From assembly GCF_055900595.2 (NCBI RefSeq), contig NZ_CM148325.1: 64,000 nt of DNA, one strand, 5' to 3'. A program made the position numbers and the translations under genes. Shown in pieces: positions 25,070 to 36,237 of this stretch (position 1 is its first letter; each line of letters begins with the position of its first letter). The notes beneath the pieces are model-generated. The model was not told the DNA's origin. It saw only the letters and a list, made by a program, of their open reading frames with translations, and did no database searches.

Positions 25070-26196
<1,127 letters not shown>

Positions 26197-26290
26197 TTAA
26201 TTCGTAAAACGTGCTACCGATCACATTAAGAATTCTCAGCATAGTTGAATTACAGGGAAGTAACATCGGGCGAGTGCCCAGTTCAGCACA

Positions 26291-27199
26291 CTAATTCTGC
26301 TGTAAAAAGTGCAGAAACTGACTTAAAGCATAAGAAGGCGTTTCGTTATTACGCCAAAACACACCGACGCTGCCTTTCTGTTCAATCTTTGGCAGGTTGA
26401 GGATCACCAGTTGCCCCTGGCTGGCATAACGTTGCGCCAGGCGTAATGACAAAATAGAGATCATATTGCTGCTTTGTAACAGGTTGGTACTGACGTTCAT
26501 CGACGCCGACTCAATCGTGTTTTCTGGCAGCATCACGCCGTGGTCTACCAGCGCATTATCAATGCTGATGCGGATGGGGGTACCTGTCGGCCAGACTATC
26601 CACCGCCAGTTAGCAAGATCATTCCAGCTGAGGGTGGCGTATTTCGCCAGTGGATGCTCAGGACGGGCGACAAAGCATACCGGCTCGGTGTAGAGCACGC
26701 GATAATTCAGCGGCAGCTGCAACGCGCGACCGCCAATTCGCCCAACCACCACATCGATAGAACCTGCCAACAGATCTTGCAGCAATGGGGTCATCACCTT
26801 CTCTTCGATATTCAGGTGTAGAGTTGGCATCTCCTTGAGCAAATGCAAAATCGCCTGGGATACGCAGTCAGTGGCGACGGGAGAACAGCCAATTTTCAGA
26901 CTGCCGACCAGTCCACCTTGTTTAAAGCGAGCCAGTTCATATTGCGATCTTTCCATGTCATTGATTAACCGTTGGGCATGTTGCAATAACAATTTGCCGC
27001 CTTCAGTAGGACGAAGTCCTTTGCTGTGCCGCTCAAAAAGTGTGAGTTCGATCTCATCTTCGAGTTGTGACAACCATTTCGACAGCGCAGGCTGGGTGAT
27101 ATTCATCATCCGCGCGACATGGGTCAGATTGCCCTGTTCACCCAGCGCCACCAGCATTTGCAGGTGATGTAGTTTTAGTTTTTGCGCCCAGTTCGCCAT
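26291..27199 (-). CDS. mhbR: LysR-family regulator of the 3-hydroxybenzoate/gentisate cluster
   Basis: HTH LTHVARMMNITQPALSKWLSQLE; start placed at MANWAQ (ATG 27197-27199) preceded by GGAGG; divergent from catabolic operon. Confidence 0.75.
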   Translation of the reverse strand: MANWAQKLKLHHLQMLVALGEQGNLTHVARMMNITQPALSKWLSQLEDEIELTLFERHSKGLRPTEGGKLLLQHAQRLINDMERSQYELARFKQGGLVGSLKIGCSPVATDCVSQAILHLLKEMPTLHLNIEEKVMTPLLQDLLAGSIDVVVGRIGGRALQLPLNYRVLYTEPVCFVARPEHPLAKYATLSWNDLANWRWIVWPTGTPIRISIDNALVDHGVMLPENTIESASMNVSTNLLQSSNMISILSLRLAQRYASQGQLVILNLPKIEQKGSVGVFWRNNETPSYALSQFLHFLQQN

Positions 27200-27325
27200 T
27201 TGCCATAACCTCCAGGTTATCTCTCTGTCCGAAATGCCATTGTACATCTCATCTCTTTAATTACATTATCGCAACATACATAAAACAAAAGAAACATCTA
27301 CCTTACCTGCACTGAGGCATTTACT

Positions 27326-28684
27326 ATGACTCAACGACGTGATTTACAAGCACTGATCGATGCTGCTCCGGTCGGCAAGATGCAGTGGCGCGTTATCATC
27401 TGCTGTTTTCTGGTGGTAATGCTCGATGGTTTTGACACCGCGGCTATCGGATTTATCGCCCCTGATATTCGCACTCACTGGCAACTCACCGCAGGCGATC
27501 TCGCCCCGCTTTTTGGCGCGGGTCTGCTGGGATTAACCGCAGGCGCACTGCTTTGTGGCCCGTTGTCCGATCGCTTTGGTCGCAAGCGGGTGATTGAGCT
27601 GTGCGTCTTTTTGTTTGGCGCGTTAAGCCTCGCCTCGGCTTTCTCACCGGATCTGCAAACGCTGGTCTTCCTGCGCTTTCTCACCGGCCTGGGTCTGGGC
27701 GGCGCGATGCCGAACACCATCACCATGACCTCGGAATATCTGCCTGCCCGCCGCCGAGGCGCGCTGGTGACGCTGATGTTTTGCGGCTTTACGCTGGGTT
27801 CGGCGTTTGGCGGGATTGTCAGCGCACAGCTGGTGCCGGTGATTGGCTGGCACGGCATTCTGGTGTTGGGTGGCGTGTTACCGCTGATGCTGTTTGTCGC
27901 ACTGCTGGTAGTTCTGCCGGAATCGCCACGCTGGCAGGTGCGCCGCCAGCTACCGCAGGCGGTGATTGCGAAAACCGTCAGCGCCATCACCCGCGAGCGT
28001 TATGTCGATACCCACTTTTATCTCATTGAATCAGCCTCCGTTACAAAAGGCAGCATTCGTCAACTGTTTATGGGACGTCAGTTACCCATCACGTTGATGT
28101 TGTGGGTAGTGTTCTTTATGAGCCTGCTGATTATTTACCTGCTCTCAAGCTGGATGCCGACGCTACTGAACCATCGCGGCATCGACCTGCAACACGCGTC
28201 CTGGGTCACCGCCGCGTTCCAGATTGGTGGTACGTTAGGCGCGCTGGCGCTGGGCGTGCTGATGGATAAGTTCAATCCTTTCCGCGTGCTGGCGCTGAGC
28301 TATGCCGTAGGCGCTGTATGCATCGTGATGATTGGCTTAAGCCAGGATGGATTATGGCTGATGGCGCTGGCGATTTTCGGCACCGGCATTGGCATTAGCG
28401 GATCTCAGGTGGGGTTGAACGCGTTGACCGCAACGCTCTACCCAACGCAAAGCCGCGCCACGGGCGTGAGCTGGTCAAACGCCGTAGGCCGCTGCGGCGC
28501 GATTGTCGGCTCGCTTTCTGGCGGCCTGATGATGGCGATGAATTTCTCTTTCGACACCCTGTTTTTCATTATCGCTGTGCCCGCGGCGATCAGTGCGGTG
28601 ATGTTAAGCCTGCTGATCACCGTGGTTCGCCAGTCGACCTCTGTCCCTGACTCACTGCCTCGCGCAGGCATTGTGAACGAATAA
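27326..28684 (+). CDS. mhbT: MFS aromatic-acid transporter (3-hydroxybenzoate/gentisate transporter-like)
   Basis: 452 aa; MFS signature [12 protein letters not shown]; first gene of operon. Confidence 0.75.
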
Positions 28685-28695
28685 GGAGCATCCTA

Positions 28696-29724
28696 ATGAC
28701 TGATAACAATCAAAAAAGCCGCGAGCAATTTTATCAGCATATTTCCGGGCAAAACCTGACCCCGCTGTGGGAGTCACTGCACCACCTGGTGCCGAAAACG
28801 CCCAACGCCAACTGTGCGCCAGCGTACTGGAATTATCAGGAGATCCGCCCGCTGCTGCTGGAGAGCGGCAGCCTGATTGGCGCGAAAGAAGCTGTGCGTC
28901 GTGTGCTGGTACTGGAAAACCCGGCGCTGCGCGGGCAGTCTTCCATCACCGCGACTTTGTATGCTGGTTTGCAACTGATCATGCCGGGCGAAGTGGCACC
29001 GAGTCATCGTCATAACCAATCGGCGCTGCGTTTTATTGTTGAAGGCAAAGGGGCATTTACCGCCGTTGATGGCGAACGCACGCCAATGAATGAGGGCGAT
29101 TTTATCCTGACCCCACAATGGCGCTGGCACGATCACGGTAACCCTGGCGACGAACCGGTTATCTGGCTCGATGGGCTGGATCTGCCATTAGTGAACACTC
29201 TGGGCTGCGGTTTTGCCGAAGATTACCCGGAAGAGCAACAACCGGTAACGCGTAAAGAGGGCGATTATCTGCCACGTTACGCTGCCAATATGTTGCCGCT
29301 GCGCCATCAGACCGGGAACTCCTCACCCATCTTTAACTACCGTTATGACCGTAGCCGCGAAGTGCTGCACGATTTAACCCGCCTGGGCGATGCCGATGAG
29401 TGGGATGGCTACAAAATGCGCTACGTCAACCCGGTCACCGGCGGCTATCCGATGCCGTCGATGGGCGCTTTCCTGCAACTGCTGCCGAAAGGGTTCGCCT
29501 CACGCGTGGCGCGTACTACTGACAGCACCATCTATCACGTGGTGGAAGGCGACGGGCAGGTCACTATCGGCAATGAAACCTTCAGCTTTAGTGCAAAAGA
29601 TCTCTTTGTGGTGCCGACCTGGCACGGCGTGTCGTTCCAGACCACGCAAGATACCGTTTTATTCAGTTTTTCGGACAGACCGGTACAAGAAGCCCTGGGG
29701 CTGTTCCGCGAAGCGCGTTATTAA
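28696..29724 (+). CDS. mhbD: Gentisate 1,2-dioxygenase (bicupin)
   Basis: 342 aa; cupin His motifs ([13 protein letters not shown]..., [10 protein letters not shown]); RBS AAGGAG. Confidence 0.8.
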
Positions 29725-29739
29725 TTTGGGAGAGAGAAA

Positions 29740-30441
29740 ATGACTCAATATGTATTCGAACCACAAGCGCCCGTTACCGTACCGGTTGTTGGCGGTGATG
29801 AACAATTCCCCGTGCGCCGCGTTTACTGCGTCGGGCGTAACTATGCCGCCCACGCCCGCGAAATGGGCTTTGATCCGGATCGTGAACCCCCCTTCTTCTT
29901 CTGCAAACCAGCAGATGCCGTTGTTCCGGTCGCCGCTGGCGAAACGCTGGCGCTGCCGTATCCGGCGCAGACCGATAACTATCATTACGAAATTGAACTG
30001 GTGGTGGCGATTGGTAAAAAGGGCAGCGATATCCCACTGGAAAAGGCCCATGAATATGTCTGGGGTTATGCCACAGGCCTTGATATGACGCGCCGGGACC
30101 GTCAAATGGAAATGCGTCAGATGGGCCGCCCGTGGGAAATCGGCAAAGCATTTGATCTCTCGGCCCCCATCGCACCGCTGCACAAAGCCAGCGAAACCGG
30201 CGGTATTGATAACGCACCAATCTGGTTACAGGTAAACGGTGAAGATCACCAGCGCAGCGATATTCGTCATCTCATCTGGTCAGTGAATGAAACCATCAGC
30301 TACCTGTCAGGCTTCTTTGAACTGCAACCGGGCGATCTGATCTTCACTGGTACGCCAGAAGGGGTGGGCCCGGTAGTGAAAGGTGATGTGATCACGGGCA
30401 ACGTCGAGGGCTTAACCCCTATCGCGGTGAAGATTGTCTGA
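29740..30441 (+). CDS. mhbH: Fumarylpyruvate hydrolase (FAH family)
   Basis: 233 aa FAH-family protein [41 protein letters not shown]. Confidence 0.75.
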
Positions 30442-30446
30442 GGTGC

Positions 30447-31094
30447 ATGATGAAGCTGTACAGTTTTTTTAATAGTTCAGCATCGTACCGGGTACGCATT
30501 GCGCTGGCGCTGAAAGGCATTAATTACCAGACCGAAGGGGTGAATATCCGTATTGGTCAGCAAAATGAACTGGCCTATCGGCGGATGAATCCTGTCGGGC
30601 TGGTGCCGACGCTGCTGACTGACGAGGGCGAGTCACTCGGTCAGTCGCTGGCGATTATTGACTGGCTGGATCGTCACTACCCGCAAGTTCCGCTGGTGCC
30701 GCAGGAAGAACCGGCCCGCAACAAGGTGCTGGAAATTGTCTATGCCATCGCTTGTGATATTCATCCATTGAATAACCTGCGCGTGCTGCGCTACCTGACC
30801 GAAGAGCTGAACGTCAGTGAAGAAGAGAAAAAACGCTGGTATGCGCACTGGATCCAGCAAGGGTTAAGCGCGGTGGAACAGCTACTGCGCCAGAGCCAGT
30901 CGGGGCAATTTTGTGTGGGTGAGACGCCGACGCTGGCAGACTGCTGCCTTGTTCCGCAGTGGGCGAACGCGCTACGTATGAACTGCGATCTGAGTGGATA
31001 TCCGCGCTGCAAAGCGGTGTACGACGCCTGCACACAACTGCCAGCGTTCATTGCCGCAGCGCCAGAAAATCAACAAGATAAAATTTCAGCCTGA
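30447..31094 (+). CDS. mhbI: Maleylpyruvate isomerase (GST-zeta-like)
   Basis: about 214 aa GST-fold MKLYSFFNSSASYRVRIALALKGINY; start could be 30447 or 30450. Confidence 0.75.
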   Translation: MMKLYSFFNSSASYRVRIALALKGINYQTEGVNIRIGQQNELAYRRMNPVGLVPTLLTDEGESLGQSLAIIDWLDRHYPQVPLVPQEEPARNKVLEIVYAIACDIHPLNNLRVLRYLTEELNVSEEEKKRWYAHWIQQGLSAVEQLLRQSQSGQFCVGETPTLADCCLVPQWANALRMNCDLSGYPRCKAVYDACTQLPAFIAAAPENQQDKISA

Positions 31095-31108
31095 CCAGGA
31101 GAACCATA

Positions 31109-32302
31109 ATGACTAAAGTGACACGCGCAGTAATTGTGGGAGGCGGGATCGGCGGTGCGGCAACTGCGCTGTCACTGGCCCGCCAGGGGATCAAAGTGGT
31201 GCTGCTGGAAAAGGCGCATGAGATCGGTGAGATCGGCGCAGGCATCCAGTTGGGGCCAAACGCGTTTTCGGCGTTGGATAGTCTTGGTGTTGGCGAAATC
31301 GCCCGCCAGCGCGCGGTGTTTACCGATCACATCACCATGATGGATGCGGTGAACGCCGAAGAAGTGGTGCGTATTGAAACCGGGCAGGCCTTTCGTGACC
31401 ATTTCGGCGGCCCTTACGCGGTGATCCATCGCGTTGATATTCATGCCTCGGTATGGGAAGCGGTACTGACGCATCCGGACGTGGAGTATCACACCTCCAC
31501 AAACGTCGTTGATATTCGCGAGACGCCGGACGATGTCACCGTTTTCGACGATCGAGGTAATAGCTGGAGCGGCGATATTTTGATTGGCTGTGATGGCGTG
31601 AAGTCAGTGGTGCGCCAGAGCTTATTAGGCGATGCGCCGCGCGTCACCGGTCATGTGGTCTACCGTGCGGTTATCGATTGTGCGGATATGCCGGAAGATT
31701 TACGTATTAATGCGCCGGTATTGTGGGCGGGTCCGCACTGTCACCTGGTGCATTATCCTTTGCGCGGCGGCAAGCAGTATAACCTGGTGGTGACATTCCA
31801 CAGTCGCCACCAGGAAGAGTGGGGCGTGAAGGATGGCAGTAAAGAGGAAGTGCTCTCTTACTTTGAAGGGATTCACCCCCGTCCGCGCCAGATGCTGGAT
31901 AAACCGACTTCATGGCGACGCTGGTCAACCGCTGACCGTGAACCGGTGGCGAAGTGGGGAACGAAGCGCATAACGCTTGTGGGCGATGCGGCTCATCCGG
32001 TGGCGCAATATATGGCACAAGGTGCCTGTATGGCGCTGGAAGATGCAGTAACGCTGGGTAAGGCGCTGGCGCAGTGTGAGGGTGATGCGGCGCAAGCTTT
32101 TGCGCTGTATGAGTCGGTACGTATTCCGCGTACCGCGCGCATCGTCTGGTCGACCCGTGAAATGGGGCGGGTTTATCACGCCGCAGGGGTAGAACGTCAG
32201 GTACGTAATCTGCTGTGGAAAGGGAAATCGCAGGCAGAGTTTTATCGCGGCATGGAGTGGCTGTACGGCTGGAAAGAAGATAACTGTCTGCAACCACGCT
32301 GA
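31109..32302 (+). CDS. mhbM: 3-hydroxybenzoate 6-hydroxylase (FAD-dependent aromatic monooxygenase)
   Basis: 397 aa; FAD-binding VIVGGGIGGAATALSLARQGIKVVLLEK and GDAAHP motif. Confidence 0.8.
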   Translation: MTKVTRAVIVGGGIGGAATALSLARQGIKVVLLEKAHEIGEIGAGIQLGPNAFSALDSLGVGEIARQRAVFTDHITMMDAVNAEEVVRIETGQAFRDHFGGPYAVIHRVDIHASVWEAVLTHPDVEYHTSTNVVDIRETPDDVTVFDDRGNSWSGDILIGCDGVKSVVRQSLLGDAPRVTGHVVYRAVIDCADMPEDLRINAPVLWAGPHCHLVHYPLRGGKQYNLVVTFHSRHQEEWGVKDGSKEEVLSYFEGIHPRPRQMLDKPTSWRRWSTADREPVAKWGTKRITLVGDAAHPVAQYMAQGACMALEDAVTLGKALAQCEGDAAQAFALYESVRIPRTARIVWSTREMGRVYHAAGVERQVRNLLWKGKSQAEFYRGMEWLYGWKEDNCLQPR

Positions 32303-32317
32303 GTACTTCTTACCCAA

Positions 32318-32378
32318 TCAGGTGCACGGACGGTCCCCTCGCCCCTTTGGGGAGAGGGTTAGGGTGAGGGGAAAAATC
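32318..32378. repeat. GC-rich imperfect palindromic repeat (BoxC-like)
   Basis: CCCCTCGCCCCTTTGGGGAGAGGGTTAGGGTGAGGGG; family assignment from memory only. Confidence 0.35.
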
Positions 32379-32420
32379 TTGCCCGAATTAATCAGTAAGT
32401 CAGTTTGTCTGCAAACACCA

Positions 32421-32448
32421 GAGGCGCTAACATAGCGCCTCATTTTTG
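32421..32448 (+). terminator. Hairpin plus T-run (terminator of mhb operon and/or IS200 left-end read-through terminator)
   Basis: GAGGCGCT-AACAT-AGCGCCTC followed by ATTTTTG. Confidence 0.65.
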
Positions 32449-32590
32449 TGCACAGAAAACCCCCAGCTAGGCTGGGGGTTCCGGAAAGCTTTCAGCTTTG
32501 AGCCAGTTATTAAAACCCCTTTTGATTTGTTAAAACACCTTGCGGTCTGGCAACTGCAAGTGTCAAACAAGAAATCAAAAGGGGGTCCCA

Positions 32591-33049
32591 ATGGGGGACG
32601 AAAAGAGCTTAGCGCACACCCGCTGGAACTGTAAATATCACATAGTTTTTGCGCCGAAATACCGAAGACTGGCGTTTTACGGAGAGAAGCGTAGGGCGAT
32701 AGGCAGTATTTTGAGAAAGCTGTGTGAGTGGAAAAGCGTACGGATTCTGGAAGCAGAGTGCTGCGCAGATCATATCCATATGCTTGTGGAAATCCCACCC
32801 AAAATGAGCGTATCCGGCTTTATGGGATATCTGAAAGGGAAAAGCAGTCTGATGCTTTACGAGCAGTTTGGGGATTTGAAATTCAAATACAGAAACAGGG
32901 AGTTCTGGTGCCGAGGGTACTATGTCGATACGGTGGGTAAGAACACGGCGAAGATACAGGACTACATAAAGCACCAGCTTGAAGAGGATAAAATGGGGGA
33001 GCAGTTATCGATTCCATATCCGGGCAGCCCGTTTACGGGCCGTAAGTAA
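32591..33049 (+). CDS. tnpA: IS200 transposase TnpA (HUH/Y1)
   Basis: MGDEKSLAHTRWNCKYHIVFAPKYRRLAFYGEKRRAIGSILRKLCEWKSVRILEAECCADHIHMLVEIPPK...; ORF track start lies further upstream. Confidence 0.9.
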   Translation: MGDEKSLAHTRWNCKYHIVFAPKYRRLAFYGEKRRAIGSILRKLCEWKSVRILEAECCADHIHMLVEIPPKMSVSGFMGYLKGKSSLMLYEQFGDLKFKYRNREFWCRGYYVDTVGKNTAKIQDYIKHQLEEDKMGEQLSIPYPGSPFTGRK

Positions 33050-33173
33050 CGAAGTTGAATGCAAATGTCAGATCGTATGCGCCTGTTAGGGCACGGCTGG
33101 TAACAGAGCCTTACAGGCGCATTTGAAAAACCTCCGGCTATGCCGGAGGATATTTATTTTTGCGGGTGATGAT

Positions 33174-34121
33174 ATGCGTGTGTTACTGGCACCGATGGAG
33201 GGTGTACTCGACTCTCTGGTGCGTGAATTGCTGACCGAAGTTAACGACTACGATCTGTGCATCACCGAGTTTGTCCGCGTGGTGGATCAACTGCTGCCGG
33301 TAAAAGTTTTTCATCGCATTTGCCCGGAGCTACAAAACGCCAGCCGAACGCCATCCGGTACGCTGGTGCGCGTGCAATTGCTGGGGCAGTTCCCACAATG
33401 GCTGGCAGAGAACGCCGCCCGTGCGGTGGAGTTAGGTTCCTGGGGTGTGGATCTTAATTGCGGCTGTCCGTCGAAAACGGTTAACGGTAGCGGCGGCGGG
33501 GCGACACTACTCAAAGATCCTGAACTCATCTACCAGGGTGCAAAAGCGATGCGTGAAGTTGTACCGGCGCATTTGCCCGTCAGTGTGAAAGTGCGTCTGG
33601 GCTGGGACAGCGGTGAGAAGAAATTTGAAATCGCCGATGCGGTTCAACAGGCTGGCGCTACGGAGTTGGTGGTGCATGGGCGGACAAAAGAGCAGGGGTA
33701 CCGCGCGGAGCATATTGACTGGCAGGCGATTGGCGAGATTCGCCAACGGCTGAATATTCCGGTGATTGCCAACGGTGAAATCTGGGACTGGCAGAGCGCG
33801 CAACAGTGTATGGCGATCAGCGGCTGTGACGCGGTGATGATTGGTCGCGGAGCGCTCAATATTCCCAATCTGAGCCGAGTGGTAAAATATAACGAACCGC
33901 GAATGCCGTGGCCGGAGGTGGTTGCTTTGCTACAAAAATATACCCGTCTGGAAAAGCAGGGCGATACTGGGTTATATCACGTTGCGCGGATTAAACAGTG
34001 GTTGAGTTATTTGCGTAAAGAATACGATGAAGCAACGGAATTATTTCAGCATGTTCGGGTGTTGAATAATTCCCTTGATATTGCAAGGGCTATTCAGACC
34101 ATTGATATCGAGAAACTCTAA
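33174..34121 (+). CDS. dusC: tRNA-dihydrouridine synthase C
   Basis: [36 protein letters not shown]... (315 aa from ATG 33174); Dus family. Confidence 0.92.
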
Positions 34122-34493
34122 GAAACCATAGTGATGTTTTTTGACAATGTGTTAGCTCTTTATCAATAGGCCGCACGGTTGTTTGGTGGCGTCAAAATCG
34201 CCGAGGCGTTCCCTGAAGGCCGGGGCAGCCCATATGGATGTGGGCTGAGGGCGCGTTTTACAGGGATGTTACCTCGCGCCCGACCCGGTAGCCGTAAGGG
34301 ATAAGCCGAGGGCACCGCGCAGCGGCGATTTTGTTCGCCAGAGCCCGGGGGTGCAGGGGGCGGCGGCGACTGGTCGCCCCCTGCGCGCTCCTTGCGCTAG
34401 TGATTATATGAAGCAATGCACATGACAGGAGCGCAACAGGATGAGAGACTGAAATATTCTCGTTATTTTCGGATCTGATGACGTTAATTAATT

Positions 34494-34577
34494 TTAAAAT
34501 ATCATCTTAAATACGCCAGTCACCACCAGTAGTCCAATCAGGAAAATAATCAATACAGCCCAGAGTATAATTTTCAT
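34494..34577 (-). CDS. yohP: Small membrane protein YohP (27 aa)
   Basis: Minus-strand ATG..TAA encodes MKIILWAVLIIFLIGLLVVTGVFKMIF, matching the recalled YohP sequence; below ORF-track size cutoff. Confidence 0.85.
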   Translation of the reverse strand: MKIILWAVLIIFLIGLLVVTGVFKMIF

Positions 34578-34800
34578 TGGCGTTCCTTTATTTGTGAGTG
34601 TCGAATAAGTATAGGAAAAAACGAAGCCCTTTGCCGTTACTCATAAGTGATTAAGATAAATCGGAGAATATCATTCACTTACTGTATATTTTTCTGAATA
34701 TGTCGTTTTATTGCCACTGATGTATTGCCACGCGAAACTAAAAAATATATTGCATCACACGGTAATCTCCGCGCACCTTTTCTTACCTGACTATTCCTCC

Positions 34801-36237
34801 ATGAATCGTGATTCCTTTTACCCAGCCATCGCCTGTTTTCCTCTGTTACTGATGCTGGCCGGGTGTGCGCCTATGCATGAAACCCGCCAGGCGTTAAGCC
34901 AGCAAACACCCGCTGCGCAAGTTGACACCGCATTACCTACGGCGCTGAAAAATGGTTGGCCAGACAGCCAATGGTGGCTGGAGTATCACGATAATCAACT
35001 CACTTCATTAATTAACTATGCACTGCAGAACGCACCGGATATGCAGGTGGCTGAACAGCGCATTCAGCTGGCTGAAGCCCAGGCGAAGGCAGTTGCCACT
35101 CAGGATGGCCCTCAGATCGATTTTTCTGCGGATATGGAGCGGCAAAAAATGTCGGCAGAAGGGCTAATGGGGCCGTTTGCTCTGAACGATCCTGCCGCAG
35201 GTACGACCGGTCCGTGGTACACCAACGGTACTTTTGGCTTAACGGCGGGCTGGCATCTCGATATCTGGGGAAAGAATCGGGCGGAGGTAACTGCTCGCCT
35301 GGGTACGGTTAAAGCACGAGCGGCGGAACGCGAGCAAACCCGCCAATTGCTGGCTGGCAGCGTTGCCCGCCTTTACTGGGAGTGGCAAACCCAGGCAGCG
35401 TTAAACACTGTTTTGCAGCAAATCGAAAAAGAGCAGAACACCATTATCGCGACCGATCGCCAGCTATATCAGAACGGGATTACTTCTTCAGTTGAAGGTG
35501 TGGAAACCGATATTAATGCCAGCAAGACCCGGCAGCAGCTCAACGATGTCGTGGGAAAAATGAAAATTATTGAGGCACGGTTAAGCGCACTTACAAATCA
35601 CCAGATAAAGTCATTGAAGCTTAAACCGGTTGAGTTGCCGAAAGTGGCAAGTCAGCTTCCTGATGAACTGGGGTATTCATTGCTGGCACGGCGGGCAGAT
35701 TTGCAGGCAGCGCATTGGTACGTTGAGTCATCGTTAAGCACCATTGATGCGGCAAAAGCGGCATTTTACCCTGACATCAACCTGATGGCCTTCCTGCAAC
35801 AGGATGCGTTGCACTTAAGCGATTTGTTCCGTCATTCCGCGCAGCAAATGGGCGTTACGGCAGGCCTGACGCTACCCATTTTCGATAGTGGTCGTCTTAA
35901 CGCCAACCTCGATATTGCAAAAGCCGAAAGCAACTTGTCTATCGCCAGCTACAACAAAGCGGTGGTTGAAGCGGTGAATGACGTGGCGCGGGCAGCCAGT
36001 CAGGTTCAGACGCTGGTGGAGAAAAACCAGCATCAGGCGCAAATTGAGCGCGATGCCTTGCGTGTGGTAGGTCTTGCGCAGGCCCGCTTTAACGCGGGTA
36101 TCATTGCTGGTTCCCGCGTCAGCGAAGCCAGGATCCCGGCGCTGCGTGAGCGGGCCAATGGCCTGTTATTGCAAGGGCAGTGGCTGGATGCCTCCATTCA
36201 ACTCACTGGTGCGTTGGGCGGGGGGTACAAACGCTGA
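34801..36237 (+). CDS. mdtQ: Outer-membrane efflux lipoprotein (NodT/OprM family); uninterrupted here
   Basis: Start taken at MNRDSFYPAIACFPLLLMLAGC (lipobox LAGC); weak RBS so start uncertain; ORF track starts at TTG 34711. Confidence 0.75.
   Translation: MNRDSFYPAIACFPLLLMLAGCAPMHETRQALSQQTPAAQVDTALPTALKNGWPDSQWWLEYHDNQLTSLINYALQNAPDMQVAEQRIQLAEAQAKAVATQDGPQIDFSADMERQKMSAEGLMGPFALNDPAAGTTGPWYTNGTFGLTAGWHLDIWGKNRAEVTARLGTVKARAAEREQTRQLLAGSVARLYWEWQTQAALNTVLQQIEKEQNTIIATDRQLYQNGITSSVEGVETDINASKTRQQLNDVVGKMKIIEARLSALTNHQIKSLKLKPVELPKVASQLPDELGYSLLARRADLQAAHWYVESSLSTIDAAKAAFYPDINLMAFLQQDALHLSDLFRHSAQQMGVTAGLTLPIFDSGRLNANLDIAKAESNLSIASYNKAVVEAVNDVARAASQVQTLVEKNQHQAQIERDALRVVGLAQARFNAGIIAGSRVSEARIPALRERANGLLLQGQWLDASIQLTGALGGGYKR

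Follow-up and report, generated by a model that had tools for sequence, protein, structure and literature searches.

A 27-codon minus-strand reading frame between dusC and mdtQ is the known Escherichia coli small-protein gene yohP

Introduction

Does a reading frame of only 27 codons, placed on the minus strand between dusC and mdtQ, encode a protein, and if so, which protein and with what role in the cell? The question is raised by a 64,000-nucleotide stretch of contig NZ_CM148325.1 (NCBI RefSeq assembly GCF_055900595.2), which is called the window in the following. A sequence-only reading of this stretch had proposed that the frame is the gene for the small membrane protein YohP, and that it had been missed by the list of open reading frames (ORFs) at hand. 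ORFs of this size are abundant, as 64 ORFs of at least 20 amino acids are listed in the 4 kb around yohP. A 27-codon ORF is thus within chance expectation, and the case for yohP must come from homology and selection.

Methods

Orthologues of yohP were searched for on genome contigs, using one genome per species, with a degenerate codon pattern in which NTN stood for the hydrophobic codons. Fixed in this pattern were the ATG, A-purine codons at positions 2 and 24, TGG at codon 6 (W6), GGN at codon 15 (G15) and, in 19 codons, T as the middle base. When applied to the window as a control, the pattern gave one match, with none expected. Only unforced columns were counted as evidence, and conservation at forced positions was excluded. 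The scan yielded 78 loci, a number to be read as a lower bound, as orthologues in which the hydrophobic register is not kept escape the pattern.

Results

Identification of the reading frame as yohP

The minus-strand ORF described by the sequence-only reading was confirmed at its position (Table 1), is also present in the mechanical ORF list of the region, and translates from its ATG to MKIILWAVLIIFLIGLLVVTGVFKMIF. The layout of the peptide, as read from the sequence, comprises a hydrophobic core of 21 residues (I3-F23) flanked by K2 and K24, with G15 in the middle of the helix and a further glycine, G21. Both family models cover residues 1-27 of the peptide: the NCBIfam equivalog NF011345, 'small membrane protein YohP', scores 67.3 bits at a curated cut-off of 58, and the Pfam family PF25659 (YohP) scores 50.6 bits at a cut-off of 27. 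At E<=10, the YohP family was the sole Pfam match for the peptide of the window.

Table 1 Features at and around yohP in the window.
Feature	Position	Strand	Remarks
3-hydroxybenzoate/gentisate catabolic cluster	~26000-32450		mhbT, 3-hydroxybenzoate 6-monooxygenase, gtdA, maiA, LysR regulator
IS200 copy	32452-33163	as dusC	712 bp, into which a possible flanking duplication of 7 bp is counted; 10-17 bp before the dusC start (33174)
Rfam STnc490 match, 5' end of IS200 copy	32458-32581	+	146 bits
tnpA ORF of IS200 copy	32540-33049	+
dusC	33174-34121	+
dusC–yohP spacer repeat	34125-34425		GC-rich; no annotated feature
Inverted repeat, left arm	34353-34362		GCAGGGGGCG; perfect, 10 bp
Inverted repeat, right arm	34375-34384		CGCCCCCTGC
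Weak Rfam AgvB match	34411-34471	-	downstream of yohP
Region past the yohP stop	34434-34493	-	without the hairpin seen in most other genera
σ70-like site	34478-34505	+	antisense to yohP
yohP CDS	34494-34577	-	27 codons + TAA stop, ATG start
Shine-Dalgarno sequence AAGGA	34584-34588	-	6 nt upstream of the yohP ATG, read from sequence
Putative σS-type extended -10, C-TATACT (cCTATACTt)	34608-34614	-	ends 30 nt before the yohP ATG
mdtQ	34801-36237	+	intact, 478 codons, divergent from yohP
yohF	from 36278	+

All 27 residues are identical to those of K-12 YohP (b4679, YP_002791249.1), and the same protein is annotated by PGAP in the closest genome as 'small membrane protein YohP' (WP_000691708.1). 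The YohP sequence given in the sequence-only reading was therefore exactly right, and the comparison with annotated YohP by which the proposal could have failed returned a match at 27/27 identity. In a protein collection, the exact sequence carries the name 'protein YohP [Escherichia coli]' and is assigned to at least 1,000 contigs. A sequence search of the PDB with the YohP peptide found no solved structure.

The gene is close to universal in the species. At an identity of at least 95%, the 84-nt ORF was found in 5,397 of 5,426 complete E. coli genomes, in a single copy per genome and never on a plasmid, and all 19 of the full-length matches in evenly sampled rows were annotated as yohP. The 701-bp stretch around yohP matches 5,425 of the 5,426 genomes, with the best matches annotated as yohP and dusC. 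When 72,556 plasmids were searched by tblastn with YohP, no match was obtained, and there is hence no sign of mobility.

An alignment of the 341 bp around yohP from the window, K-12 and the closest genome showed a mean column identity of 99%. Within the ORF, K-12 and the window differ by a single base, a synonymous change at Gly15 that reads GGG in K-12 and GGA in the window, while the Shine-Dalgarno sequence and the -10 element are the same. The GGA allele is a minority allele in E. coli, since an exact match to the 84 nt of the window occurs in 20 of the 5,397 records.

The ORF is thus the E. coli gene yohP, and nothing argues against this identification. All features of YohP family membership that could be tested are present, i.e., model scores, identity, architecture, synteny and coding selection. 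As to the statement that the gene had been missed by the ORF track, this holds for the size cut-off of the first-stage list and fails for public annotation, in which yohP is annotated.

Published properties of YohP and its proposed role

In K-12, the level of YohP carrying a chromosomal SPA tag and produced from its native promoter increases between early and late stationary phase, and is also raised in minimal medium, when oxygen is limiting and at higher pH; an induction by SDS/EDTA and H2O2 described earlier was not reproduced (PMC12719787). The Salmonella orthologue was first catalogued as the small RNA STnc1330. Its tagged protein is abundant in stationary phase and almost undetectable without rpoS (PMC5437024).

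YohP is found in the inner-membrane vesicle fraction, is carbonate-resistant and takes up a mostly N-out/C-in orientation (PMC7549839). It forms SDS-resistant dimers, for which Gly15 is required and Gly21 is dispensable (PMC7549839). Insertion takes place post-translationally, with SRP and FtsY binding after release from the ribosome and subsequent transfer to SecYEG or YidC (PMC7549839). YohP does not reach the length of the ribosomal exit tunnel and is thus too short for co-translational targeting, so that SRP binds it only after release. In addition, the U-rich yohP mRNA binds to the membrane independently of translation via SecY and YidC, a binding to which its uracil content contributes and which allows SRP-independent insertion (PMC10066597).

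[quoted passage not shown] YohP production also condenses the nucleoid, and the native level amounts to ~1,000 copies per cell (PMC12542507). The plasmid-expressed levels that give these effects match native stationary-phase levels (PMC12719787, PMC12542507). Deletion of yohP left growth normal with only minor changes in the proteome, and resulted in poorer survival of ciprofloxacin and H2O2 (PMC12719787).

That the depolarization and silencing phenotypes derive from premature, plasmid-driven expression in exponential phase is listed by the authors as a limitation (PMC12719787). From this premature expression, they propose that the native role of YohP would be a sublethal, protective 'metabolic silencing' or bet-hedging upon entry into stationary phase (PMC12719787). 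Judged from the identical ORF, Shine-Dalgarno sequence and promoter element, yohP of the strain analyzed here would be expressed and would act as in K-12. We are highly confident in the explanation as a whole, which takes yohP as the E. coli gene for a 27-residue single-pass inner-membrane protein; the mechanism with this proposed role is less well supported than the identification.

Gene neighborhood and a possible membrane partner

The order dusC (+), yohP (-), mdtQ (+), yohF (+) is the same in the window, in the closest genome, in K-12 MG1655 and in most of the 78 loci of other species, and the position of yohP has been given as between dusC and mdtQ (PMC12719787). Among the orthologous loci of other species, DusC is encoded nearby in 48 of 78, MdtQ in 45 and YohF in 38, with all three counts limited by the length of flank that each locus carries. 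In several genera, yohF directly adjoins yohP with no mdtQ between them (e.g., L009, L013, L015, L041 and L076). Within E. coli, mdtQ is a pseudogene in K-12 MG1655, whereas it is intact in the window and annotated in the closest genome as 'multidrug resistance outer membrane protein MdtQ'.

This arrangement bears on a second reading of YohP function, according to which the protein mainly modulates one larger membrane protein, as is the case for AcrZ, MgrB and MgtS, and the depolarization is a side effect of over-expression. MdtQ would perhaps be the partner, as the two genes are adjacent and divergent in the 45 loci of other species and mdtQ is intact in the window. Many characterized small membrane proteins do act through a partner (PMC12719787), the C-terminal half of YohP (GLLVVTGVFKMIF) is almost invariant across the orthologues, and the depolarization data come from premature expression. 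However, K-12 expresses an identical yohP although its mdtQ is a pseudogene, and there are genera in which yohP lies beside yohF and mdtQ is not found between them. Moreover, the plasmid-borne levels at which the effects occur are those reached natively in stationary phase, and the YohP literature reports no partner besides the insertion machinery. We consider it improbable that YohP works mainly in this manner.

By analogy with AcrZ, which modulates AcrB, the conserved divergent pairing of yohP and mdtQ could mean that YohP modulates efflux dependent on the outer-membrane channel MdtQ. Studies in K-12 would miss such a link, since mdtQ is a pseudogene there. We regard this narrower proposal as very unlikely.

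Beyond dusC, the window departs from K-12. While K-12 carries yohJK (yohJ-yohK) at this place, the window carries an IS200 copy followed by a 3-hydroxybenzoate/gentisate catabolic cluster. The IS200 copy is absent in the closest relatives, which match the region as two pieces of 100% identity; an end-to-end match, at 99.9%, was seen only in AST85 among the listed complete genomes. Its insertion so close to the start of dusC could uncouple this gene from its promoter; yohP is untouched. The stretch 26000-34200 is covered to at least 80% in just 504 of the 5,426 E. coli genomes, and this neighboring 8.2-kb stretch has matches of 99.9-100% in E. coli strains. The window is accordingly assigned to the E. 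coli chromosome. The spacer between dusC and yohP contains a GC-rich repeat with a median of three matching places per E. coli genome, which includes the inverted repeat listed in Table 1.

Expression signals and the question of an antisense RNA

Across the orthologues, the yohP upstream region has diverged between genera apart from two islands. One is the Shine-Dalgarno sequence, for which an SD-like tetramer at -16 to -4 is present in 77 of the 78 orthologous loci. The other is an element of the form C+TAnRCT, which 76 of 79 sequences carry 15-50 nt before the ATG, in most cases ending at 30-33 nt. It occurs in the form C-TA(T/C)(A/G)CT, with TATACT in 45 sequences and TACACT in 23. A cytosine at -13 before such a -10 hexamer is a hallmark of σS-dependent promoters. 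From this conservation across genera, we infer that C-TATACT is a σS-type promoter element of yohP, and its position predicts a 5' UTR of ~22-24 nt. Canonical σS features in the -10 region have been described for promoters of small genes in Salmonella (PMC5437024).

Scanning with a σ70 consensus did not pick up the yohP promoter, and the window gave no hit for a canonical terminator either. The sole site returned by the scan lies antisense to the gene (Table 1). This site is of interest for a third reading, in which yohP is the toxin of an unrecognized type I toxin-antitoxin pair, silenced by an antisense or adjacent small RNA as in tisB/istR, dinQ/agrB and ldrD/rdlD. The site would drive antisense transcription into yohP, and the depolarization of the membrane and condensation of the nucleoid by YohP are effects shared with TisB, DinQ and LdrD.

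The antisense site is, however, at chance level, with one found and 1.4 expected, and a comparable site is present in only 5 of the 78 orthologous loci. Type I toxin mRNAs have long structured leaders, whereas the predicted 5' UTR of yohP is short with an exposed Shine-Dalgarno sequence. With ~1,000 copies per cell, YohP is natively abundant, and its action is sublethal. In addition, the gene is a single chromosomal copy in each genome with no match on any of the plasmids searched, and none of the toxin families (Hok, Ldr, TisB, Ibs, ShoB, DinQ and others) matched in Pfam at E<=10. At the level of sequence signals, no small RNA that could serve as the antitoxin, either antisense to yohP or overlapping it, was found with a conserved promoter. 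Taken together, a type I toxin appears extremely unlikely, and the antisense RNA was rejected because its site is not conserved.

No Rfam family matches the yohP ORF, and no small RNA reaches threshold at the locus. The best hit, a weak match to AgvB (anti-GcvB sRNA) downstream of yohP, at 22.9 bits compared to a gathering score of 56 (E = 0.44), is most likely due to chance.

Downstream of the gene, the window differs from most of the other loci. A perfect, GC-containing hairpin starting at most 50 nt past the yohP stop is present in 54 of 77 orthologous loci, and in 29 of these it is followed by a T-rich tail. In the window, the corresponding region lacks such a hairpin, and the first 60 nt past the stop fold at -2.3 kcal/mol, the weakest value of all, compared to a mean of -21.7 kcal/mol. 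It is conceivable, though very unlikely, that loss of the post-stop hairpin in Escherichia has led to a long yohP 3' UTR that extends into the GC-rich repeat, and perhaps to different regulation.

Orthologues and coding selection

Of the 78 loci recovered by the codon pattern, 77 belong to Enterobacteriaceae, in genera including Citrobacter, Enterobacter, Salmonella, Kosakonia, Buttiauxella, Cedecea, Lelliottia, Franconibacter and Siccibacter, and one to Noviherbaspirillum. Several features that the pattern does not force are conserved throughout. The stop is at codon 28 in all 78 loci, G21 is invariant, and T20 is changed once, to serine. In 70 distinct DNA sequences, the entropy is 0.39 bits at free first codon positions compared to 1.10 bits at free third positions. 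Codon differences from the window comprise 814 synonymous versus 160 non-synonymous changes. The yohP orthologues are hence under purifying selection at the protein level.

The weakest of the alternative readings, a chance intergenic ORF or a non-coding small RNA (STnc1330) from which no protein is made, would suit the abundance of short ORFs in the region and the original listing of the Salmonella transcript (PMC5437024), but it is excluded by the codon-position pattern with its dominant third-position variation, by the fixed length of exactly 27 codons and by the detection of tagged protein from the native locus in E. coli (PMC12719787) and Salmonella (PMC5437024), with the conserved Shine-Dalgarno sequence and the lack of an Rfam family matching the ORF likewise speaking against it, and retains practically no probability.

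Two observations concern individual orthologues. In the betaproteobacterium Noviherbaspirillum aerium (locus L019, 1635-1714, minus strand), a 27-codon ORF encodes MKILLWLVVIIFLVGLLVVSGVLKLIF, is preceded by a GGAGG Shine-Dalgarno sequence and scores 40.5 bits with the Pfam YohP model, above the cut-off. No DusC, MdtQ or YohF is encoded near this ORF and no σS-type -10 element was found there. Either distant homology or horizontal transfer would account for this ORF. In six further loci from Kosakonia, Franconibacter and some Enterobacter-labeled genomes (L004, L020, L038, L044, L052 and L071), an in-frame ATG directly precedes the yohP ATG. YohP may comprise 28 residues (MMK...) in these loci, which would fit the 28 positions of the Pfam model.

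[quoted passage not shown]

Two predicted stem-loops in the coding RNA of yohP, at nt 10-25 and 30-78, have been discussed for membrane targeting (PMC10066597). The synonymous change of the window, G45A, falls into the second of these and shifts the predicted minimum-energy fold from -9.8 to -8.3 kcal/mol. We compared the two stems over 71 distinct sequences. For stem 10-25, pairing was seen in 35% of cells, which is no better than slid controls. Stem 30-78 is paired in 85%, mostly via invariant first and second codon positions, and only 34 of the 71 sequences form the pair 45-63. The third base of Gly15 varies freely (GGG in 35 sequences, GGC in 19, GGA in 9 and GGT in 8) while C63 is almost invariant, so there are no compensatory changes at this pair.

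Folding energies are no lower than those of synonymous-codon shuffles, with a mean z of +0.42. The uracil content of yohP is uniformly high at 0.37-0.49, as dictated by the hydrophobic codons. A special meaning of the GGA allele was therefore rejected, as the 71 orthologue sequences give no evidence of selection on the stems; no conservation could be detected for the predicted stem-loops that have been put forward for targeting of the mRNA to the membrane.

Discussion

The identification of yohP in the window is correct and already known, and the locus holds nothing new. Described years ago and part of the PGAP annotation of essentially every E. coli genome, the gene carries little weight as a discovery. 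The case does illustrate that the size cut-off of a first-stage ORF track hides known small-protein genes. ORFs below 50 codons should be compared with the NCBIfam and Pfam small-protein models before they are flagged. YohP serves as a model substrate for the insertion of very small membrane proteins. To its published description, the comparative data contribute independent support, if modest, for coding selection and for a putative σS-type promoter conserved across Enterobacteriaceae.

The effects of YohP on the cell invite comparison with type I toxins such as TisB, DinQ, LdrD and Hok, which are likewise small, hydrophobic peptides of the inner membrane, where they dissipate the membrane potential, and which also cause condensation of the nucleoid. 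In contrast to these, yohP shows no conserved antisense RNA signal, its predicted leader is short and open, its product is of high abundance with a sublethal effect, and no toxin family matches its sequence. YohP thus resembles type I toxins in effect yet fails their defining features.

A functional likeness is offered by YncL of E. coli, like YohP a stress-induced, single-pass protein, with a length of 31 amino acids, which also causes sublethal depolarization together with condensation of the nucleoid (PMC12542507). The families of YncL and YohP are unrelated in sequence.

The Salmonella orthologue YohP/STnc1330 shares with the window the length of 27 amino acids, the dusC–yohP–mdtQ context (L028 and L048) and a TATACT -10 hexamer preceded by a C, and its production depends on σS and stationary phase (PMC5437024). 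Compared with the protein of the window, the Salmonella orthologues carry a few substitutions, which are conservative and located in the N-terminal half. At the 3' flank, a GC-rich hairpin follows the stop in most non-Escherichia loci, which sets them apart from the window.
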